Below, piece by piece: positions 7,274-19,648 of a stretch of DNA of 64,000 nucleotides. A program made the translations under genes and the position numbers. Origin of the DNA: Escherichia coli (GTDB lineage: Bacteria; Pseudomonadota; Gammaproteobacteria; Enterobacterales; Enterobacteriaceae); assembly GCF_022846255.1 (NCBI RefSeq), contig NZ_AP025682.1. One strand, given 5' to 3'. A model generated the notes under the pieces. That model did no database searches and was not told the origin of the DNA. It was given only the letters and a program-made list of their open reading frames with translations. The stretch's first letter is position 1. The number at the start of each line of letters is the position of its first letter.

Positions 7274-8074
7274 TTAACGTAACGAGCGACTTTCCATCGC
7301 CTCGATGAGCACCGCATCGTGTTTCAGCGTTTGCCATGCCTGGATGACTTCTGCCGGAAAATCAACGTGAACGATAAAATCTCGCCCGCGGGGGCCGTAG
7401 CCATCGCTATCATCGCGTAAACGCGGCAGCTCGCCAGTGAGTAGCGATAGATAACGCTCAACCGGCCATAATCCTTGCAACGGATTAACAAAGATTACAC
7501 TGTCTGCGTTATTTCCTAACTGAGGAACGAATCCGGGATAACTTAACCAGCGTGGTGCATCGGGATTATCCCCGGTTATACGGCGGAACGTCGCCATCGT
7601 GCGCCGCTGCATGGTGGGGTCCTGAACAACGATAGCCGTATGAACTCGTTCTACGGCCTGATTCAATAGCGCGATGCTAAAGCGTGCGTTTTCACCGCAG
7701 TTTGTTGACTGGTCTTCAATCCAGATTTTTTCATGCGGAATATGCCAGAACTGATGAGCGATATCCGCCAGGATGGTAGCTTCAGCTCTGCCAGTGGTGC
7801 GGATAGTGTTGTAGTGTGGATGCTGTGCGATGGCGCTATACAAAAAAGTTGTCGAGTGACCGATACCACCACTAATCAGTAAAGGAATTTGCTGATCGCG
7901 GGCAATCTTACATGCCGCATCGATAGTCGGCATAACCGCATTGCCTGCAAGGATCACGCAATCGGCCTGATACGGCACCTCACCGGAGAAATCATCCTGC
8001 GCCAGCCACTGTCCGATAACATTTATGGCATCTATGGTTGCCGGCGAAAGCGTCGGAAACGGGGTAATATTCAT
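7274..8074 (-). CDS. ydcF: DUF218 family protein, 266 aa
   Basis: 266 aa ORF between aldA and hrpA, same length and position as K-12 ydcF. Confidence 0.8.
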
Positions 8075-8285
8075 GGTTCCTCCTTATCGTTCCCTTAAGA
8101 ATACTGCGTGAGATAATAGTGAGAAGCGGAGCACTCTGAAAGGAGGAAGTCGTATTTCCTTAACTGCCACTCCGCAAGCCTGACATATTTTTTAAGGAAA
8201 TGCTGTAGATAAACATTATTCATCTTGCAGCAGAGAATTGTATTTTTCTGAACTCCTGAATTTTTTCCCTTATCGTTTTTAGAAT

Positions 8286-8322
8286 TAATAAAAAACCCGG
8301 CGCTAAATGCTTACCGGGTTTT
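8286..8322 (-). terminator. Intrinsic terminator downstream of hrpA
   Basis: aacccgg...ccgggtt hairpin followed on the minus strand by a T-run. Confidence 0.5.
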
Positions 8323-8346
8323 AGATTTATCAGGCAAATAGCAGTG

Positions 8347-11300
8347 TTAACCGCTAATCTGCTCCATCGCCTGCAAAATACGCTTATCCGAAATCGGATA
8401 AGGCGTGCCAAGTTGTTGAGCGAAGTAACTAACGCGCAGCTCTTCTATCATCCAGCGGACCTCTTTCACGTCTTCATCCTCACGACGTGCAGGCGGTAGT
8501 TTGTTGATCCATTGCTGCCACGCCTGCTGGACGTTTTCGACTTTCAGCATCTGAGCACGGTCGCGATGTGGATCAATCGCCAGTTTTTCCAGTCGTTTTT
8601 CAATCGCCTGCAAATAACGCAGCGTGTCGCCCAGCCGTTTGAAGCCGTTACCAGTGACAAAACCGCGATACACCAGCCCGCCCATCTGCGCTTTAATGTC
8701 AGAAAGCCCCAGCGCCATGGTCATATCCACCCGCCCTTTCAGACGTTTGTTGATATTGAACACCGCAGTGAGGATTTGCTCGACCTGCTTCGCAATATCC
8801 ACCACTGTGTCGTTCAGTTCAGCGCGGACTTTTTCATGCAGCGCAGCAAAGCCTTCTTCCGTCCAGACCGGGCCACCATTGGCGTCGATCAGTTGATCCA
8901 CACCGCAGGAGATACAGTCGTCGATCAGCTCCAGCACTTTGCCATACGGGTTAAAGTACAGCCCCAGCTTGGCTTTGTTTGGCAACTTCTCATGCAAATA
9001 TTTGATTGGCGAGGGAATATTCAGCAGCAGTAAACGGCGAAGACCGTTCCACATTGCCTGCTTCTGTTCCAGCGGGTTATCAAACAGTTTGATCGCTACG
9101 CTGTCACGCTCATCCACCAGCGCCGGCCACGCCTTCACTTTGTAGTTGCCGCGCTTCTGCTCGTAGCTTTCCGGCAGTTGACCAAAACTCCAGATATGTA
9201 AACCGCTCTGCTCGATACCGTCATCCGCCACGGCAGACAGCGTTTCCTGCACTTTGCCTTTCAGGGCGTCTTTCAGATCCTGTAATGAGCGCCCTTCTTT
9301 TAGCTTCTTGTTTTTGTCATCCACCACGCGGAAAGTGATTTTCAGGTGATCGGGCACCTGATCCCAGTGCCAGTCTTCGCGGTCAACGGTGACGCCAGTC
9401 ATCCGCCGTAACTCTCGTTCAAGGCTGTCGAGCAACGGCAATTCCAGCGGTGTGACGCGGCCTAAAAACGCTTCGGCGTAGTTTGGCGCGGGCACAAAAT
9501 TACGGCGTACCGGCTTCGGCAGCGATTTAATCAGGGCGATGATCAGCTCACGACGCAGACCGGGGATCTGCCACTCAAACCCACTCTCCTCAACCTGGTT
9601 AAGTAACGGCAGCGGGATATGCACGGTCACACCGTCAGCATCCGCACCGGGCTCAAACTGATAGCTCAAACGCAGTTTGAGATTGCCCTGATGCCAGAAG
9701 TTCGGGTAATCCAGTTTGCTGATTTTTTCCGCCCCTTCTTTGATCAACATGCTCTTTTCAAAGTTGAGCAAATCAGGCGTTTCGCGGCTGACTTTTTTCC
9801 ACCAGCTGTCGAAGTGACGTGCGGAAATCACATCGTGGCTGATGCGCTGGTCGTAGAACTCAAACAGCGTTTCGTCATCCACCAGAATATCGCGGCGACG
9901 TGATTTGTGTTCCAGCTCTTCTACTTCCGCCCGTAGTTTCAGGTTTTCACGGAAGAATGCGTGACGCGTCTGCCAGTCACCTTCCACCAGCGCGTGGCGA
10001 ATAAAGAGTTCACGACATAACGCCGGATCGATCTGGCTGTAGTTGACCTTACGCGCAGCAACAATCGGCAACCCGTAAACAGTGACTTTTTCCGTTGCCA
10101 TCACCGCGCCCTGCGCCCGTTCCCAGTGCGGTTCGCTGTAGGTGCGTTTGATTAAATGCTGAGCGACAGGTTCCACCCATTCTGGATCGATGCGTGCCGC
10201 AATGCGCCCCCACAGGCGGCTGGTTTCTACCAGTTCCGCCACCATTACCCATTTCGGCGGCTTTTTGAATAAACCAGAACCGGGGAAGATGGAGAAACGC
10301 GCGTTACGTGCGCCGGTATATTCTTGTTTATCGGCATCTTTCATGCCGATATGCGAAAGCAAACCGGTCAGCAACGCAATGTGAATTTCGCGATAATCCG
10401 CCGGTTCGCTGTTAACCGGAATGCCAAGTTCTTTCACCACCTGGCGCAACTGGGTGTAGATATCCTGCCATTCGCGCACGCGCAGATAGTTGAGATAATC
10501 AGTACGACACAGGCGACGGAAGGCGTTTGAAGAAAGCGCCTTTTGCTGCTCGCCAAGATAATTCCACAGATTCACAAATGCCAGGAAGTCAGACTCTTTG
10601 TCGTGGAAGCGACGATGTTTTTCGTCAGATGCCTGCTGTTTATCCATCGGACGCTCACGCGGATCCTGAATGGAGAGCGCGGACGTGATAATCATCGCCT
10701 CACGCACGCAGCCATGTTTTTGCGCTTCCAGCACCATTCGCGCCAGACGAGGATCGACTGGCAGTTGCGAGAGCTGGCGACCGAGCGGCGTCAGTTTATA
10801 GGCGCTGGCCTGTTCATCAGTGGTGATCGCGCCCAGCTCTTCGAGCAGACGCACGCCATCCTGGATATTGCGTTTATCCGGTGCTTCGACAAACGGGAAT
10901 GCGGCGATATCGCCCAAGCCCAGTGCGGTCATCTGCAAAATAACCGAGGCCAGGTTAGTACGCAGAATTTCTGGGTCGGTAAACTCCGGGCGCGAGAGGA
11001 AATCGTCTTCGGAATAGAGACGAATACAGATCCCTTCTGACACACGACCGCAGCGGCCTTTACGCTGATTAGCTGAAGCCTGCGAAATTGGCTCAATCGG
11101 CAAACGCTGCACTTTGGTGCGATAGCTGTAGCGGCTGATACGCGCCGTACCTGGGTCGATAACGTATTTAATCCCCGGTACGGTCAGCGAGGTTTCCGCG
11201 ACGTTAGTCGCCAGCACAATGCGCCGTCCGCTGTGCGACTGGAAGACGCGGTTCTGCTCGCTGTTGGAAAGCCGTGCATAAAGCGGAAGAATTTCCGTAT

Positions 11301-12249
11301 GGCGTAAGTTCAGCTTGTTCAGCGCATCGGCGGTATCGCGAATTTCTCGCTCGCCGCTCATAAAAATCAGAATGTCGCCAGGGCTTTCCTGGCTCAGTTC
11401 ATCTACGGCATCGAAAATCGCCTGCAACTGGTCGCGCTCGGTGTCATCAGCTTCTTCAACAATCGGGCGATAGCGCACTTCCACCGGATAGGTCCGACCG
11501 GAGACTTCGATAATCGGCGCATTATTAAAGTGGCGCGAAAAGCGTTCCGGGTCGATAGTCGCGGAGGTGATAATAATTTTTAGGTCAGGACGCCGCGGCA
11601 GCAACTCTTTCAAATAGCCGAGGAGAAAATCGATATTCAGGCTGCGTTCGTGCGCTTCGTCAATAATGATGGTGTCGTACTGCATCAGCAGGCGGTCTTG
11701 CTGGATCTCTGCCAGCAGGATGCCGTCGGTCATCAGCTTGACCATCGTGTTATCACTGACGTGATCGCTGAAACGCACTTTGTAACCGATGCAACCGCCC
11801 GGCTCCGTTTTCAGCTCTTCCGCAATACGGTTCGCCACCGTTCTTGCCGCCAGGCGACGCGGCTGGGTATGGCCGATCAGCCCTTTAATCCCGCGCCCCA
11901 GCTCCATACAGATTTTCGGTAGCTGAGTCGTTTTACCGGAACCCGTTTCCCCGGCGACGATCACCACCTGGTGGTCACGAATCGCTTCGAGAATGTCCTG
12001 CTTTTTCTGACTAACCGGCAAATTGTCCGGGTAAGTAATCTCCGGTCGTGCCGCTTCACGCAGCAGGACTTTCCCTGCCGCATGGTCAATCTCTTTCGCC
12101 ATCTCCTGGAAAATGGCTTGTTGTGCATCAGGATTTTTAACCTTCTTCACACCGTGCAGACGGCGTAAAAAACGCTGTCTGTCGCGCAGCATCAGCGAAT
12201 CCAGCCGCTGCTGCAAGTCAGCAAAGGTCAATTTTTGTTGTTCTGTCAT
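8347..12249 (-). CDS. hrpA: ATP-dependent RNA helicase HrpA (DEAH-box), 1300 aa
   Basis: 1300 aa; Walker A GETGSGKTTQLP, DEAH motif (IIIDEAHERS), helicase C-terminal and HA2 regions. Confidence 0.95.
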   Translation of the reverse strand: MTEQQKLTFADLQQRLDSLMLRDRQRFLRRLHGVKKVKNPDAQQAIFQEMAKEIDHAAGKVLLREAARPEITYPDNLPVSQKKQDILEAIRDHQVVIVAGETGSGKTTQLPKICMELGRGIKGLIGHTQPRRLAARTVANRIAEELKTEPGGCIGYKVRFSDHVSDNTMVKLMTDGILLAEIQQDRLLMQYDTIIIDEAHERSLNIDFLLGYLKELLPRRPDLKIIITSATIDPERFSRHFNNAPIIEVSGRTYPVEVRYRPIVEEADDTERDQLQAIFDAVDELSQESPGDILIFMSGEREIRDTADALNKLNLRHTEILPLYARLSNSEQNRVFQSHSGRRIVLATNVAETSLTVPGIKYVIDPGTARISRYSYRTKVQRLPIEPISQASANQRKGRCGRVSEGICIRLYSEDDFLSRPEFTDPEILRTNLASVILQMTALGLGDIAAFPFVEAPDKRNIQDGVRLLEELGAITTDEQASAYKLTPLGRQLSQLPVDPRLARMVLEAQKHGCVREAMIITSALSIQDPRERPMDKQQASDEKHRRFHDKESDFLAFVNLWNYLGEQQKALSSNAFRRLCRTDYLNYLRVREWQDIYTQLRQVVKELGIPVNSEPADYREIHIALLTGLLSHIGMKDADKQEYTGARNARFSIFPGSGLFKKPPKWVMVAELVETSRLWGRIAARIDPEWVEPVAQHLIKRTYSEPHWERAQGAVMATEKVTVYGLPIVAARKVNYSQIDPALCRELFIRHALVEGDWQTRHAFFRENLKLRAEVEELEHKSRRRDILVDDETLFEFYDQRISHDVISARHFDSWWKKVSRETPDLLNFEKSMLIKEGAEKISKLDYPNFWHQGNLKLRLSYQFEPGADADGVTVHIPLPLLNQVEESGFEWQIPGLRRELIIALIKSLPKPVRRNFVPAPNYAEAFLGRVTPLELPLLDSLERELRRMTGVTVDREDWHWDQVPDHLKITFRVVDDKNKKLKEGRSLQDLKDALKGKVQETLSAVADDGIEQSGLHIWSFGQLPESYEQKRGNYKVKAWPALVDERDSVAIKLFDNPLEQKQAMWNGLRRLLLLNIPSPIKYLHEKLPNKAKLGLYFNPYGKVLELIDDCISCGVDQLIDANGGPVWTEEGFAALHEKVRAELNDTVVDIAKQVEQILTAVFNINKRLKGRVDMTMALGLSDIKAQMGGLVYRGFVTGNGFKRLGDTLRYLQAIEKRLEKLAIDPHRDRAQMLKVENVQQAWQQWINKLPPARREDEDVKEVRWMIEELRVSYFAQQLGTPYPISDKRILQAMEQISG

Positions 12250-12440
12250 AACGTTAGTGGGCAGTAGGCTGCCTGATTAATTTTCTTTTAAATGATAGAT
12301 ATAGAGTACCACATCGCGGCTTTCTATGCGTTGTTCAATAAATTCGAACATAGGCTTCGATTTATTGCGCTATCTCTGTGGCAGGATTGTGAATAAAGTG
12401 TCAACAAGCAACGGGGCATTGCCCATTCAAATATCTATAA

Positions 12441-13055
<615 letters not shown>

Positions 13056-13066
13056 GATTTATGATG

Positions 13067-13093
13067 CCTCCCACGAAAGTGGGAGGTTTTTTT
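13067..13093. terminator. Bidirectional intrinsic terminator between azoR and ydbC
   Basis: cctcccac-gaaa-gtgggagg hairpin followed by T7. Confidence 0.65.
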
Positions 13094-13095
13094 AT

Positions 13096-13962
13096 TTAAC
13101 CCGCCTTTTGCGCAATACTGTCCAGCGTTGCCAGCACGTCATCCGTTAGCACTAATTCATCGGACGCCATATTCTCCCGCAGATGCCCCACCGAAGAGGT
13201 GCCAGGAATCAACAAAATATTCGGTGAACGTTGTAACAGCCACGCCAGCGCCACCTGCATTGGTGTTGCACCCAGGCTCGTAGCAACATCGGAAAGCGTG
13301 GAGGATTGCAGCGGCGTAAAGCCCCCGAGCGGGAAGAACGGCACGTAGGCAATGCCATCACGAGCCAAAGCATCAATCATTGCGTCATCAGCACGGTGGG
13401 CAATGTTGTATTCGTTCTGCACGCAGACGATTTCGGCAATCTTTCGCGCCTCTGCAACCTGCGTCGGTGTGACGTTACTCAGGCCAATATGTTTTACCAG
13501 GCCTTGTTGTTGCATCTCCGCCAGCACTGTCAGGCTGGCCTCAATCGATCCTTCCGCTGGGCCATGACCATCCCCCATCATAACGCGCAGGTTAACCACA
13601 TCCAGTACGTCCAGGCCGAGATTACGTAGATTATCGTGTACCGCTTTTTGCAGCTCTGCCGGAGAAAATGCGGGTAACCAGGAAGCGTCCTCTCCACGCC
13701 GCGCACCAATTTTAGTGACAATTGTCAGGTCGTCAGAGTAAGGATAAAGCGCTTCGCGGATAATCTGATTGGTGACGTGCGGACCATAAAAGTCGCTGGT
13801 ATCAATATGATTGACGCCCAATGCCAGCGCCTCGCGCAGCACGGTTATAGCGACGTGGCGATCTCTTGGGGGGCCAAAAACCCCAGAACCAGCCAGTTGC
13901 ATCGCGCCATAACCAAGACGGTTAACGGATTTTGTACCGAGAGTAAATGTGTTGCTGCTCAT
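13096..13962 (-). CDS. ydbC: Aldo-keto reductase family oxidoreductase
   Basis: AKR fold (NHIDTSDFYG, catalytic Tyr/Lys context); position next to azoR matches ydbC. Confidence 0.8.
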   Translation of the reverse strand: MSSNTFTLGTKSVNRLGYGAMQLAGSGVFGPPRDRHVAITVLREALALGVNHIDTSDFYGPHVTNQIIREALYPYSDDLTIVTKIGARRGEDASWLPAFSPAELQKAVHDNLRNLGLDVLDVVNLRVMMGDGHGPAEGSIEASLTVLAEMQQQGLVKHIGLSNVTPTQVAEARKIAEIVCVQNEYNIAHRADDAMIDALARDGIAYVPFFPLGGFTPLQSSTLSDVATSLGATPMQVALAWLLQRSPNILLIPGTSSVGHLRENMASDELVLTDDVLATLDSIAQKAG

Positions 13963-14109
13963 CGCACCCTGCCCTGTAATAAAACGGATTAAGAAAAATC
14001 AGTATAGGAATGAATAGAGATAAATAATGCGAGGGTGTAAACAAGATTACTGGATGAGTAGCTCTAATATCCTGAAAGACACCAAAACAAGACGCGTCAA
14101 GTACCGCAT

Positions 14110-14149
14110 CCGGCAATAAAAAACCGCAACCTGTATCAGCGTTGCGGTT
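14110..14149 (-). terminator. Intrinsic terminator downstream of the paaY-like gene
   Basis: aaccgcaac...gttgcggtt hairpin followed on the minus strand by a T-run. Confidence 0.5.
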
Positions 14150-14162
14150 AAGGTATCACATG

Positions 14163-14783
14163 CTAAAAATTAGAACGTTCAGCATCTGGACGTGACTGTT
14201 TCGGTCGCAGATTCTCATCAAATACCAGACGCTGCCTGCCAGGTTCAACTTCCCGCAATGGCTCGACTTGATGCAACGTCTGCTTACAACGTGTCACCAG
14301 CACCTGATACTCATGCGTGCCCTGCTTTTTCCATGCCAGCTCCTGCTCACTAAGTTCACGAATCGCTTTTGCCGGGCTGCTGACAATCAGATAATTAGCA
14401 GGCATTTCTGCTTTGGCTTTCACAAATGCGGATGCGCCAACAATACTGTTCTCACCAATCACCGCACCGTCCATCACTACCGCGTTCATTCCCACTAACG
14501 CATTGCGGCGGATAATGCAGCCGTGAAGGATAGCGCTATGACCAATATGCCCATCTTCTTCAACGACAGTATCCTGCCCGGGAAAGCCGGGCATAACGCA
14601 ATTATCCTGAATGTTCGCGCCATCTTTCACCACGATACGACTAAAATCACCTCGCAGGCTGGCATTTGGTCCAACGTAAACGCCCTTGCCGAGAATAACA
14701 TCGCCGATCAATACCGCTGTCGGATGAACAAAACTCTCTTCTGTTACAATCGGAGTCAGACCGTCTATCTGATAAATTGGCAT
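14163..14783 (-). CDS. paaY: Hexapeptide-repeat (gamma-carbonic-anhydrase-like) protein, PaaY/CaiE/YrdA family
   Basis: Left-handed beta-helix hexapeptide repeats; N-terminus [11 protein letters not shown] resembles PaaY as recalled; genomic position corresponds to the end of the paa cluster, which is otherwise absent. Confidence 0.55.
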
Positions 14784-14889
14784 AACACCTCCTGTTCAAT
14801 ATTCAAACCGCCAAAACGTTGAAAATACAGGCTACCCGGCGAAGGCTGCTCACCGACCGAGGTTTCACCTTTTTCACTAACGAACGCTA

Positions 14890-15124
14890 CAGCAGCAGGC
14901 GCTACGCGCTGATAAAATTTGCCGATAAAGGTTTGGTGGTCGCGCAATATATTCGTAACCGTCGTCTCGATTTTTGTGCAGATGCGATTCGCCATGCCGC
15001 AGATGATGAAAAACTGGCAGGCATTGGCTTTCATTGGGGATTTTCCGACCAGAGTCATTTTTCAACGGTATTTAAACAACGCTTTGGGATGACGCCAGGC
15101 GAGAATCGGCGTAAATTCCGCTAA
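14890..15124 (+). pseudogene. C-terminal remnant of an AraC-family regulator (probably feaR 3' end)
   Basis: Only the last ~75 codons look like an AraC HTH (GFSDQSHFSTVFKQRFGMTPGENRR); no N-terminal domain; position between ydbL and paaY is where feaR lies in K-12. Confidence 0.45.
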
Positions 15125-15162
15125 CTAATTCGCGTTGCATGTACAGCAACGCGAATTAGTTA
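15122..15162. repeat. 17-bp perfect inverted repeat with 7-nt loop overlapping the stop codon of the AraC remnant
   Basis: taactaattcgcgttgc-atgtaca-gcaacgcgaattagtta read directly; no flanking U-run, so it may be a protein-binding palindrome or a factor-dependent terminator. Confidence 0.5.
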
Positions 15163-15295
15163 AAACAGATATTTGACTATGCATTTTTCAGGGCAAAAGA
15201 CAATTTGGCAGGAATTTTTGAATAATCATCTTATTTCCGGAAAATAGATTAATCGCCTTCTCCTGTAGCGTTATCCCGATATTGCGGTTTTGCTA

Positions 15296-15625
15296 TTAAA
15301 ATTTTCGCACCCATTTACCGTTTATCCCTTGTACATATTCCCCGGGTTTGGCCCGTTCTACGAGCTTTTGCCCGGCGAGTTTCGCGATATCATCCACCGA
15401 CACATTATTTTGCTTTGCCAGTTGTTGATAGCTCGCTTTACGTTCGGCATTGATGTCGGTTACTAATTTCTCAGTTTCAGCATCTGTTTTCAGCGCAACC
15501 AGATAACCATAAAATGTTTCGCCTACCCGCCCCTGAGTTCTGGCTTCATCCAGAGTCAATGCCATTACATTGCTGCTTACCAAGCCAACAAGAAATGCAC
15601 AAAGAAGTAATGTTCTTTTCATCAT
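15296..15625 (-). CDS. ydbL: DUF1318 periplasmic protein
   Basis: Start at MMKRTLLLCAFLVGLVSSNVMA (signal peptide) after a gagg RBS; gives ~108 aa, matching ydbL. Confidence 0.8.
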   Translation of the reverse strand: MMKRTLLLCAFLVGLVSSNVMALTLDEARTQGRVGETFYGYLVALKTDAETEKLVTDINAERKASYQQLAKQNNVSVDDIAKLAGQKLVERAKPGEYVQGINGKWVRKF

Positions 15626-15629
15626 CACC

Positions 15630-15815
15630 TCAAAAAAGATCGCTACGGGTCTCAAGCAGCTCTTCGACATCTTTGTCTGCCTTGATGATGATCTCATGCT
15701 CAATTTTAACGTTCATATTGATAGTGATCGGTTCCTTAGGTGCAGCGACTTCAATGCGAGGCGTACAGCCAACCAGCATAAAAGATGACGTCAACGCAGC
15801 CAGTAAAATTTTCAT
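15630..15815 (-). CDS. ynbE: Small lipoprotein, 61 aa
   Basis: MKILLAALTSSFMLVGC lipobox; 61 aa; translationally coupled between ydbH and ydbL. Confidence 0.8.
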   Translation of the reverse strand: MKILLAALTSSFMLVGCTPRIEVAAPKEPITINMNVKIEHEIIIKADKDVEELLETRSDLF

Positions 15816-18451
15816 TGTTTATCCTCACACTCTTTTCCTTGCGGACAGTCATTTCCCGGTAGACGCGCGTTCTGCTCCAGCCATGCCTGGAGATTATCGC
15901 CAAAGCGTAAACTGCGCCACAGCGTAAAAATATTCTCTTCATGATGGTAATTAATATTTACCGTACCGCTTTTACCATCAACGCGACTGGTACCTGTAAT
16001 ATTGGCCTGCATGGTTAATAAACCGAGATTATCTAAATTAATTTTTGTCGATGAACGGCTAATTTCCATATAGCGCAACCAGTTAATTGCTGAACCCGCG
16101 GTCATATTGTCTTTCACCACCGCATCTGCGGTGTCTTTATCCAGCCGCAAGGTCATCGGCCCGCTATTTGCCAGCCAGCCGTCTTTCACAATCCATTTTT
16201 CGTTGTTTAGCCATAACGGCAATGCACCACTAAATGCCCCGGACATGGCGAATTGTTTCGGATTGACGGCGCTAACCAGTTCGCTGGAGGAAAGATTATT
16301 CAGCCGCAACAGCGCCGGGTCATGTTGCGGCATACGTAATTGTTTCATCAGCACGTTACCGCCTAACACATCGACGCTAACATCAGTCAACAGCAATGGT
16401 TCTTCTTCAGTCCACGGATAACGCCCTTGCAAATCAGCCGTAATATTTTTCGCTGTAACCAGATTAATCACTTCGGCAATTCGCAACGTAACGGGACCGC
16501 GAGTCCCCAGATGCCAGGCTCCATCGGCAAAACGGAAAGGCAGGACAAAATCGACACCGTTAACCTGATTATCTGGCATCCAGGCACTACCGCCTTTCAA
16601 CACGCCGTGCCCTCCCGCGCGGAATCCTTGTTCGGGCGCTGCTGAAAATGCAACCTGAGCATACAGTTCACCATCGCGTAAGTTCATCTTCCAGTCGGGT
16701 GGCACCAACGGCTGGAATACAGTCAGTGATTGTTTAGGCCACCAGGCGTTACCGCGCAGACGAATACCGTCCCAGCGACCATTTACCCGAACCGGGCCAA
16801 TCTCACCAGCATGTAAATCGCCTTTAAAGAGGAAATACGTCGGATCGCGCCCATCGACGCTAAATTTTAAGGTTGATGGCGGTAACACACTGCCGCCAGT
16901 GAACAGCGTTTGCCCGGCGTCCAGTGACAGCGCGCCGCTGAAGGAGGGATGCTGTGCGTCACGTCCCCAGACGACGGGCTTGTCGAGAATTAATCGCGGC
17001 TTTTCTACCGTCATCGTACCGTATTGTAACTGGTCGAAACCGGTGGAGAGATCGGTCAGCGTAATCGTGCTGTCATGCCACTCACCTTTTCCTGCGACAT
17101 CCCAGGTGGCATTCATCGGTGTAAAACTCCCTTTTCCCCAGTAGCGCCACTGCCAGCGGCCAGCGTCAGGGAGAAAATCATTCGCCAGCCCATCCATATG
17201 CAGCACGAAATCGCCCAGTTCATTTTCATGCGCCTGCAAAATGGCCTGCAAACGTCCGTCAACACCACGTTGGGTGACTTTTACACCCGCTAAAGGCCAG
17301 CGGATTTCATCGATGTCCAGCGAATCAATGACTCTTCCCTTTGAACGAAGTAACGCGCCAGGCTCAAAGGTCAGCGTTGGGTCAGACAGACTTCCACTTA
17401 GCTGCGCAGGTAAACGGGCATATAAAATGAGGTCCGCCTGTTTCGCTTCACCGGTCAGCTGCAGAGGCAGCTGGCTGTTATCCATGCTTAATTTTCCTGG
17501 GCCAAAATTTAACACCGCGTTGCCTTTACCCGCTTGCCCCTGGGTCAGCACACTCAGTCGCCCGCTGACCAGAGCGTTCTCGAGCCCTGCCTGCCAGTTG
17601 TCGACTTTAACACCCAGTCGGCCACTCAAAGGAAAACCTGCATACGGCCAGCTCCAGCGACCATCGCTTACGGTCAATTGTTGACGAGTAATTTGCCACG
17701 GCAAATCGAGCAACGGATCGCCGTTATCCCGTGCCAGCACAATCAATTGCCCGCTATTTTCCTGCCAGTCCAGCTCGGCATCCACCAGTGACGGTTCCTG
17801 CGGCAAGTTTAACGTCGCAGTAGCATGACCACTTACCGGAAGTCCATCCGGCACGAGCGGCATAGTAAATTCCCCCACCAGTTTTACCGGCGGCTGATTT
17901 TCAAACGCGGCGACATCCAGTTCGCTGACTGTAAGTTGTTGCCCTTTCAGCTGGCCTTGAAATTTAACTTTTTCGCCCTGATAACGCAGTTGCTGGATAT
18001 CGGAGGTTAATGCGAGAGAGAGTTTTCCCTGCCATTCCTGCCAGGGAGAAAAAATCAGTTTATCGATATTGATCCAGGTGTTAGGCAGCATGGACTGCCA
18101 CTGCGCGAGGGTTTTTGGAGCGGCTGGCGATTGTTCCGCCTGCGGCAATTTCGCCAGACAAGCAGAATCAAGTTCTACCGTGCCGACGTTCAATAACCAG
18201 CGGCTGGGATGTGAAAGGCTGGCGTTGGTGATATGCGCAAGCTGACAATCTCCCACCAGATAACGGAGATCGGGGATGATTAAACCTTTACGCGTAATGC
18301 GTGGGCTTTCATCTAATGCAATACGTGTCCCGAGCGGTAGCCAGATGCCCGCCAGCGTGGGAACCCACAGCCCGAGCGTCATCAGCAGCGTCAACGGCAC
18401 AAGAATAATCAGTAATAACAGCGCGAGAACGGCTTTATATTTACCCAGCAT
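15812..18451 (-). CDS. ydbH: Large AsmA-like membrane-anchored protein, 879 aa
   Basis: 879 aa with N-terminal TM anchor; same length and operon arrangement (ydbH-ynbE-ydbL) as K-12. Confidence 0.9.
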   Translation of the reverse strand: MLGKYKAVLALLLLIILVPLTLLMTLGLWVPTLAGIWLPLGTRIALDESPRITRKGLIIPDLRYLVGDCQLAHITNASLSHPSRWLLNVGTVELDSACLAKLPQAEQSPAAPKTLAQWQSMLPNTWINIDKLIFSPWQEWQGKLSLALTSDIQQLRYQGEKVKFQGQLKGQQLTVSELDVAAFENQPPVKLVGEFTMPLVPDGLPVSGHATATLNLPQEPSLVDAELDWQENSGQLIVLARDNGDPLLDLPWQITRQQLTVSDGRWSWPYAGFPLSGRLGVKVDNWQAGLENALVSGRLSVLTQGQAGKGNAVLNFGPGKLSMDNSQLPLQLTGEAKQADLILYARLPAQLSGSLSDPTLTFEPGALLRSKGRVIDSLDIDEIRWPLAGVKVTQRGVDGRLQAILQAHENELGDFVLHMDGLANDFLPDAGRWQWRYWGKGSFTPMNATWDVAGKGEWHDSTITLTDLSTGFDQLQYGTMTVEKPRLILDKPVVWGRDAQHPSFSGALSLDAGQTLFTGGSVLPPSTLKFSVDGRDPTYFLFKGDLHAGEIGPVRVNGRWDGIRLRGNAWWPKQSLTVFQPLVPPDWKMNLRDGELYAQVAFSAAPEQGFRAGGHGVLKGGSAWMPDNQVNGVDFVLPFRFADGAWHLGTRGPVTLRIAEVINLVTAKNITADLQGRYPWTEEEPLLLTDVSVDVLGGNVLMKQLRMPQHDPALLRLNNLSSSELVSAVNPKQFAMSGAFSGALPLWLNNEKWIVKDGWLANSGPMTLRLDKDTADAVVKDNMTAGSAINWLRYMEISRSSTKINLDNLGLLTMQANITGTSRVDGKSGTVNINYHHEENIFTLWRSLRFGDNLQAWLEQNARLPGNDCPQGKECEDKQ

Positions 18452-18658
18452 GGGTAGTTAATATCCTGATTTAGCGAAAAATTAAGCATTCAATACGGGT
18501 ATTGTGGCATGTTTAACCGTTCAGTTGAAGGTTGCGCCTACACTAAGCATAGTTGTTGATGAATTTTTCAATATCGCCATATCTTTCAATTATATTTGAA
18601 ATTTTGTAAAATATTTTTAGTAGCTTAAATGTGATTCAACATCACTGGAGAAAGTCTT

Positions 18659-19648
18659 ATGAAACTCGCCGTTTATAGCACAAAACAGTACGACAAGAAG
18701 TACCTGCAACAGGTGAACGAGTCCTTTGGCTTTGAGCTGGAATTTTTTGACTTTCTGCTGACGGAAAAAACCGCTAAAACTGCCAATGGCTGCGAAGCGG
18801 TATGTATTTTCGTAAACGATGACGGCAGCCGCCCGGTGCTGGAAGAGCTGAAAAAGCACGGCGTTAAATATATCGCCCTGCGCTGTGCCGGTTTCAATAA
18901 CGTCGACCTTGACGCGGCAAAAGAACTGGGGCTCAAAGTAGTCCGTGTTCCAGCCTATGATCCAGAGGCCGTTGCTGAACACGCCATCGGTATGATGATG
19001 ACGCTGAACCGCCGTATTCACCGCGCGTATCAGCGTACCCGTGACGCTAACTTCTCTCTGGAAGGTCTGACCGGCTTTACTATGTATGGCAAAACGGCAG
19101 GCGTTATCGGTACCGGTAAAATCGGTGTGGCGATGCTGCGCATTCTGAAAGGTTTTGGTATGCGTCTGCTGGCGTTCGATCCATATCCAAGTGCGGCGGC
19201 GCTGGAACTCGGTGTGGAGTATGTCGATCTGCCAACCCTGTTCTCTGAATCAGACGTTATCTCTCTGCACTGCCCGCTGACACCGGAAAACTACCATCTG
19301 TTGAACGAAGCCGCCTTCGATCAGATGAAAAATGGCGTGATGATCGTCAATACCAGTCGCGGTGCATTGATTGATTCTCAGGCGGCAATTGAAGCGCTGA
19401 AAAATCAGAAAATTGGTTCGTTGGGTATGGACGTGTATGAGAACGAACGCGATCTGTTCTTTGAAGATAAATCCAACGACGTGATCCAGGATGACGTATT
19501 CCGTCGCTTGTCTGCCTGCCACAATGTGCTGTTTACCGGGCACCAGGCATTCCTGACAGCAGAAGCTCTGACCAGTATTTCTCAGACTACGCTGCAAAAC
19601 TTAAGCAATCTGGAAAAAGGCGAAACCTGCCCGAACGAACTGGTTTAA
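18659..19648 (+). CDS. ldhA: Fermentative D-lactate dehydrogenase (NAD-dependent), 329 aa
   Basis: D-isomer-specific 2-hydroxyacid dehydrogenase fold (GVIGTGKIGVAM NAD-binding motif); 329 aa. Confidence 0.95.
   Translation: MKLAVYSTKQYDKKYLQQVNESFGFELEFFDFLLTEKTAKTANGCEAVCIFVNDDGSRPVLEELKKHGVKYIALRCAGFNNVDLDAAKELGLKVVRVPAYDPEAVAEHAIGMMMTLNRRIHRAYQRTRDANFSLEGLTGFTMYGKTAGVIGTGKIGVAMLRILKGFGMRLLAFDPYPSAAALELGVEYVDLPTLFSESDVISLHCPLTPENYHLLNEAAFDQMKNGVMIVNTSRGALIDSQAAIEALKNQKIGSLGMDVYENERDLFFEDKSNDVIQDDVFRRLSACHNVLFTGHQAFLTAEALTSISQTTLQNLSNLEKGETCPNELV

Follow-up and report, generated by a model that had tools for sequence, protein, structure and literature searches.

The azoR-pdxI interval of Escherichia coli very probably exists as an old dimorphism of a short and a long haplotype that has been reshuffled by recombination, and the 64,000-nucleotide stretch of DNA analyzed here (the window) carries the short form. 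Taken by itself the feature is an ordinary gene presence/absence difference, and the same allele already lies in hundreds of public genomes. What the comparison adds is that the absence relative to K-12 reflects another haplotype of old standing, in which pdxI is chimeric, and not the scar of a deletion. A literature search for descriptions of an azoR-pdxI polymorphism found none.

In the window, azoR occupies the plus strand at 12450..13055 and encodes an FMN-dependent NADH-azoreductase of 201 aa. The open reading frame takes its name from RefSeq annotation of near-identical genomes, and the product is about 99% identical to K-12 AzoR (200 of 202 aligned positions, counting the stop). Convergent to it on the minus strand lies pdxI (13096..13962), an aldo-keto reductase gene of 288 codons. 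Its product matches NCBIfam PRK10376 over its full length (552 bits at a cut-off of 280, with residues 2-286 covered), and pdxI, formerly ydbC, is the RefSeq name in the closest genomes. The spacer between the two genes measures 40 bp (13056..13095). It is framed by the azoR stop codon TAA at 13053-13055 and the minus-strand stop codon of pdxI, read as TTA, at 13096-13098. The first-pass annotation had placed the junction at 13055-13096, and both positions are exact, the former closing the azoR stop codon and the latter opening that of pdxI. The left flank is formed by the conserved hrpA gene (minus strand, 8347..12249; NCBIfam equivalog HrpA, 2624 bits), the right flank by paaY (minus strand, 14163..14783; TIGR02287 PaaY, 364 bits) and a C-terminal remnant of paaX (14768-14914).

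This right flank holds a second gap relative to K-12. Between 13963 and 15811 the window has neither the ydbA autotransporter gene nor most of the paa/tynA/fea region, and it retains paaY and the paaX remnant, followed by ydbL-ynbE-ydbH. On the paaY side its layout matches that of L095 and L085 (E2348/69 and GPEC657). The strain belongs to a sparsely sampled lineage: at least 99% identity over the first 25 kb of the window (1-25000) is reached in just 2 of 5,426 complete E. coli genomes, the top-ranked matches with full coverage of this part are 97.4% identical, and hrpA shares 95.1% identity with its K-12 counterpart.

According to the first-pass annotation K-12 has ydbD and ynbA-ynbD between azoR and ydbC, and this is correct. 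In a K-12 MG1655 derivative the two genes are not adjacent; their stop codons are 7,173 bp apart, and the interval reads pdxI-ydbD-ynbA-ynbB-ynbC-ynbD-azoR. That these genes are missing from the window was likewise borne out, as blastn and tblastn of the full 64 kb revealed no trace of the K-12 block, either at the junction or relocated elsewhere. The flanking genes are the same in both strains, with nucleotide identities of about 96% for azoR and for the 5' part of pdxI. In contrast, the spacer together with the last ~105 nt of pdxI is only 64% identical to K-12. Similarity stops precisely at the azoR TAA on the left side, while on the right side mismatches are dense at 13099-13201 and sparse beyond, with pdxI being about 96% identical to K-12 from about 13201-13231 onwards. 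From the mismatch map, the identities and the trees described below, we delimit a diverged tract specific to the short haplotype at 13056..13201, which comprises the spacer and the final ~105 nt of pdxI. The same picture emerges against a long-type E. coli (L083, strain SCAID URN1-2021): there are 38 mismatches within 13099-13201, whereas the flanks are 98-99% identical. No substitution in azoR separates short-type from long-type E. coli, and the short-type ST131 shares 99% identity with the long-type L083 in azoR as well as in the 5' part of pdxI.

The spacer contains a single, GC-rich hairpin (13066-13087) of the sequence GCCTCCCAC-GAAA-GTGGGAGGT, followed by TTTTTTT. Its stem has 9 bp, 6 of them GC pairs, and its loop 4 nt; it starts 10 nt past the azoR TAA, and the pdxI stop lies 9 nt beyond it. 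The folding energy is -18.7 kcal/mol (z = -6.0 compared with shuffled sequences). A pattern scan reports an intrinsic terminator at 13066..13094 on the plus strand and none on the minus strand. There the hairpin still folds (-15.6 kcal/mol), but it is followed by CAUCAUAAAUCUUAU, which is no U-tract. We therefore predict an intrinsic (Rho-independent) terminator that is canonical for the azoR direction only. Bidirectional terminators are intrinsic terminators sited between convergent genes. The window resembles them in having one GC-rich hairpin between two convergent stop codons. However, a U-tract is found on the azoR strand only, while the pdxI strand has an A-tract upstream of the hairpin and no U-run downstream. 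The description of a shared terminator hairpin given in the first-pass annotation is thus half right, as the hairpin is a canonical terminator for the azoR transcript only. In the cell, azoR transcription would be expected to stop at this strong predicted terminator, and pdxI transcripts would meet the same hairpin without a U-tract.

The hairpin is conserved beyond E. coli. Across six orthologous spacers 94.4% of cells are paired, compared with 41-56% in slid controls. Two stem pairs show compensatory changes, although with only six sequences the same covariation score was reached in 19 of 500 shuffles. A hairpin of the form CCTCCC(A/G)C...G(T/C)GGGAGG follows azoR in nearly all of the about 39 Enterobacteriaceae genomes that were examined, irrespective of the neighboring gene on that side. 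It is missing from K-12 and E. albertii, which have GATGTGGACTG...CAGTCCACATC instead; in K-12 this structure has no T-run, and pdxI has a terminator of its own.

The second element that distinguishes the two haplotypes is the C-terminus of PdxI. The window protein ends in ...ASDELVLTDDVLATLDSIAQKAG (288 aa; tail ...TLDSIAQKAG) and the K-12 protein in ...AAEKLHLSEEVLSTLDGISRE (286 aa; tail ...TLDGISRE), while the two are 99% identical at the amino acid level when the last 30 alignment columns are excluded. The pdxI gene of the window is a mosaic, with 5' ~760 nt that are E. coli-like and 3' ~105 nt of the short-haplotype type. Tails like that of the window are found in C. amalonaticus, Kluyvera, E. 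marmotae and the proteins P0005-P0008, whereas the ...ISRE tail is confined, among the PdxI proteins compared, to E. albertii and E. coli of the long type. Neighbour-joining trees conflict accordingly: for the tail, K-12 and E. albertii group with 100% bootstrap support and the short types group separately, but upstream of the tail the window, ST131 EC958 and K-12 form one clade, again with 100% bootstrap support. Gene conversion from an E. coli paralogue is an unlikely source of the tail, since each genome has the tract just once (650 places in 646 genomes). The gene is intact, and the resemblance to orthologues in other genera suggests that PdxI with the alternative tail may well be functional as a pyridoxal reductase.

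Several alleles of the junction could be counted in 5,426 complete E. coli genomes, so that the first-pass annotation proved right in calling it a variable site. At least 80% of the K-12 block is present in 3,755 genomes, and 655 genomes have no match to the block anywhere. The exact window junction occurs in 646 genomes (about 12%), among them the ST131 strains EC958 and MNCRE44 and a derivative of E2348/69. A structural difference shared by so many independent genomes is no matter of chance. The genomes that match at least something of the block (4,771) and those with the short junction (646) add up to 5,417 of the 5,426, which fits disjoint sets and a true absence of the block genes from short-type genomes. 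An internal ydbD deletion that leaves both gene ends was counted in 483 genomes (for example L083:7634-7933), and rarer states include a missing ynbB, larger deletions and IS insertions. ST131 EC958 (NZ_CP138232) and the EPEC E2348/69 derivative (NZ_LT903847) share the short allele with the window, including spacer, hairpin and 288-aa PdxI, at 98.5-99.4% identity over the diverged tract. EC958 differs in a T-tract that is one T shorter and in its right neighbor, a large autotransporter-like gene that adjoins pdxI where the window has paaY.

A simple deletion looks different. In 146 of the 5,426 genomes (type U1; E. coli U1 and FFFEB2, L084/L086) azoR and pdxI are also adjacent and convergent, without ynb genes and ydbD. 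Unlike the window, these strains have a 113-bp spacer with 110 bp of long-type sequence, a K-12-type hairpin and some 55 bp from the 3' end of ynbD, and they retain the K-12-type pdxI tail. Judged by this layout, the U1 type is an independent, true deletion derivative of the long allele.

Orthologous spacers of 39-40 bp with the hairpin are present in ST131 EC958, in the Escherichia lineage L003, in E. marmotae and in the Enterobacteriaceae L096 (JGI 3300039909) and L097 (SRR25912123). Like the window, the non-coli members of this group have a PdxI tail of the ...LATLDSIAK..G type and a terminator hairpin, here with compensatory changes, but their tracts are 79-87% identical to that of the window and their flanks are diverged at the species level (80-95%). 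They also differ in the neighbors on the pdxI side, with ydbL in E. marmotae and ydbA-paaY-paaX in L096/L097. Over the tract the window is 86% identical to L096 and 79% to L003 and E. marmotae; the E. coli short type is nearer to L096 (86-87%) than to the congeneric E. marmotae and L003 (79-80%), and the flanks show the opposite order. In the tree, the E. coli short type joins L096/L097 with only about 30% bootstrap support on about 117 sites. Among the loci compared no match to the tract exceeded 87% identity, the best being L096/L097 (86-87%), followed by L003 (82%) and C. amalonaticus (74%). In these two, hrpA-azoR is about 84% identical to Escherichia, Citrobacter, Klebsiella, Enterobacter and Kluyvera alike, the gene order is paaX-paaY-ydbA-pdxI-40 bp-azoR, and PdxI is 90% identical to that of the window. 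In L003, hrpA is about 92% identical to E. coli.

The long-type features are not confined to E. coli either. E. albertii (L088 and relatives, 10607-14010) has the order azoR-ydbD-pdxI, a 286-aa PdxI with the ...ISRE tail and no ynbABCD. Its 181-bp azoR-ydbD spacer contains a weak 33-nt similarity to the 3' end of K-12 ynbD, and in some strains ydbD or pdxI contains IS elements. The ynbDCBA genes lie 3' of azoR within the azoR-ydbL interval in many Citrobacter, K. spallanzanii, Phytobacter, Superficieibacter and others. Since the ynb cluster occupies the same interval in other genera, the long state is also old, and at the root of Escherichia either form may have come first. Citrobacter sp. Cu233 (L005:10600-19756), the single ynb locus of other genera that was looked at in detail, has an additional acyltransferase gene (PF01553) that separates ynbC from ynbB, and a similar ynbC-ynbB gap of about 640 nt is seen in the other ynb-bearing Citrobacter loci. 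In Cu233 ydbL and ydbH follow directly after the cluster, so that the lipid-modification cluster adjoins the YdbH phospholipid-transport genes.

How did the short allele arise? One answer, a recent loss of ynbD-ydbD from a K-12-type ancestor by illegitimate or microhomology-mediated deletion between the stop codons, would explain why the genes are missing between E. coli-like flanks, and such losses are known at the locus, as the U1 type, the internal ydbD deletions and the ynb-less E. albertii illustrate. However, the window keeps no remnant of the long block and no collinear, near-identical junction. Its spacer and the last ~105 nt of pdxI, at ~64% identity to K-12, are orthologous to those of other species, and a deletion cannot create a family-wide azoR hairpin or a canonical PdxI tail when neither is in the long allele. 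We consider this scenario extremely unlikely. Between E. coli-like flanks the two haplotypes have diverged to the level of different genera, so the short allele did not come from the E. coli long allele by deletion. The hairpin and the tail are ancestral features that the short haplotype keeps and the long one lacks, so the former cannot be derived from the latter by loss. The absence reported in the first-pass annotation is not to be equated with loss from a K-12-like ancestor; what stands at the junction is a separate haplotype of old standing, in which pdxI has a 3' end of its own and azoR its ancestral terminator. A collapse of the interval in the window's assembly can be neglected, because the identical junction is found in 646 complete genomes from many laboratories, and the near-equal number of 655 genomes without any match to the block fits true absence. 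The reverse view, which takes the K-12 block for a recently inserted mobile genomic island of the classical kind and the window for its empty site, draws on the clean absence of the block and on its three AT-rich genes; it is very unlikely nonetheless. No integrase, transposase, IS element or tRNA is annotated in the K-12 block, a scan of window positions 8000-19000 found no tRNA, and no direct repeats were found to border the block. Furthermore, copies of the block in different E. coli share 96-100% identity, E. albertii already has the ydbD-pdxI part of it, ynb clusters lie in the same interval in other genera, and the supposed empty site has a replaced pdxI tail rather than a clean att-like junction.

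Vertical retention is a more serious rival. According to this idea the short form is the ancestral Escherichia state, which some E. coli have kept from a time before E. marmotae branched off, and the long block was gained in the ancestor of the remaining lineages. The preserved family-wide terminator and canonical PdxI tail speak for it, as do the short arrangement in E. marmotae and L003 and the low G+C content of ydbD, ynbA and ynbB (43-47%, with flanks at 52-53%). Yet long-type junctions are found in E. albertii and in about 85% of E. coli, both alleles would have had to survive speciation, the E. coli short tract is nearer to L096 than to the congeneric short types, and the 99% identity of azoR and the pdxI 5' part between ST131 and L083 places the allele on recombined flanks. 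Retention by descent alone seems unlikely to us.

The recombining short/long dimorphism accommodates these observations as follows. In the short haplotype azoR ends in the terminator hairpin common to the Enterobacteriaceae and pdxI has its canonical 288-aa tail, without ynbABCD and ydbD. In the long haplotype, that of K-12 and most E. coli, hairpin, spacer and the final ~105 nt of pdxI give way to a 7.2-kb block and another pdxI tail; this block consists of a putative lipid-modification cluster (ynbABCD) plus ydbD. Within E. coli the short allele would travel as a cassette by homologous recombination, and crossovers in azoR and pdxI would exchange 7.2 kb for 40 bp in a single step. The left boundary lies exactly at the stop codon, which is odd for a pure homologous exchange and would call for an illegitimate join, unless a crossover is concealed by the conservation of the 3' end of azoR. 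We lean slightly towards the view that a non-coli relative was the source from which some E. coli lineages, namely ST131, that of E2348/69 and the window strain, acquired or reacquired the short allele. The tract is nearer to L096 than to E. marmotae and L003, with the order reversed in the flanks, and this suggests import from a non-coli lineage. The chances are about even that the allele is, more specifically, an introgressed cassette from a donor related to L096/L097, brought in by one azoR/pdxI double crossover, and that azoR-ydbL is a hotspot of such imports. If so, the double crossover would have removed the 7.2-kb lipid-modification cluster and left a chimeric PdxI.

For the window strain the consequence is a lack of YnbABCD and YdbD, whose genes are non-essential. 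YnbB is a CdsA paralogue, and a ynbB knockout grows normally with barely altered MPIase levels (PMC6362211); on the basis of this growth, loss of the cluster is expected to be tolerated. The junction marks ynbABCD and ydbD as accessory genes in E. coli that are missing from major pathogenic lineages such as ST131, in keeping with the reported dispensability of ynbB. More generally, presence/absence calls made against K-12 can mask an old allelic replacement. Here, the replacement alters the C-terminal 25 residues of PdxI, a conserved enzyme, and exchanges the azoR terminator, and pan-genome tools that score gene presence only would miss both.

Two further changes were seen at or beside the junction in other strains. 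FDAARGOS_144 (L094, NZ_CP014111), whose junction is identical to that of the window, contains a 2.8-kb tract (equivalent to window 10038-12815) in which identity to the window and EC958 drops to 80-86%, from 98-100% in the surroundings. The tract takes in the 5' half of hrpA, the region between hrpA and azoR, and azoR over its first two thirds, and among the fetched loci C. amalonaticus matches it best (87.7%). Its appearance is that of a sequence imported from another genus right next to the junction, which speaks for an import of the short allele as well and would fit an azoR-ydbL hotspot for imports from other genera. The tract is not continuous with the junction tract, as 240 nt of native azoR lie between them, and a single import of both cannot be claimed. 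In an EPEC E2348/69 derivative (L095:4424-6025), the azoR terminator hairpin, equivalent to window 13066-13087, carries ISEc13 in its loop, with the target duplication CACGAAAGTG.
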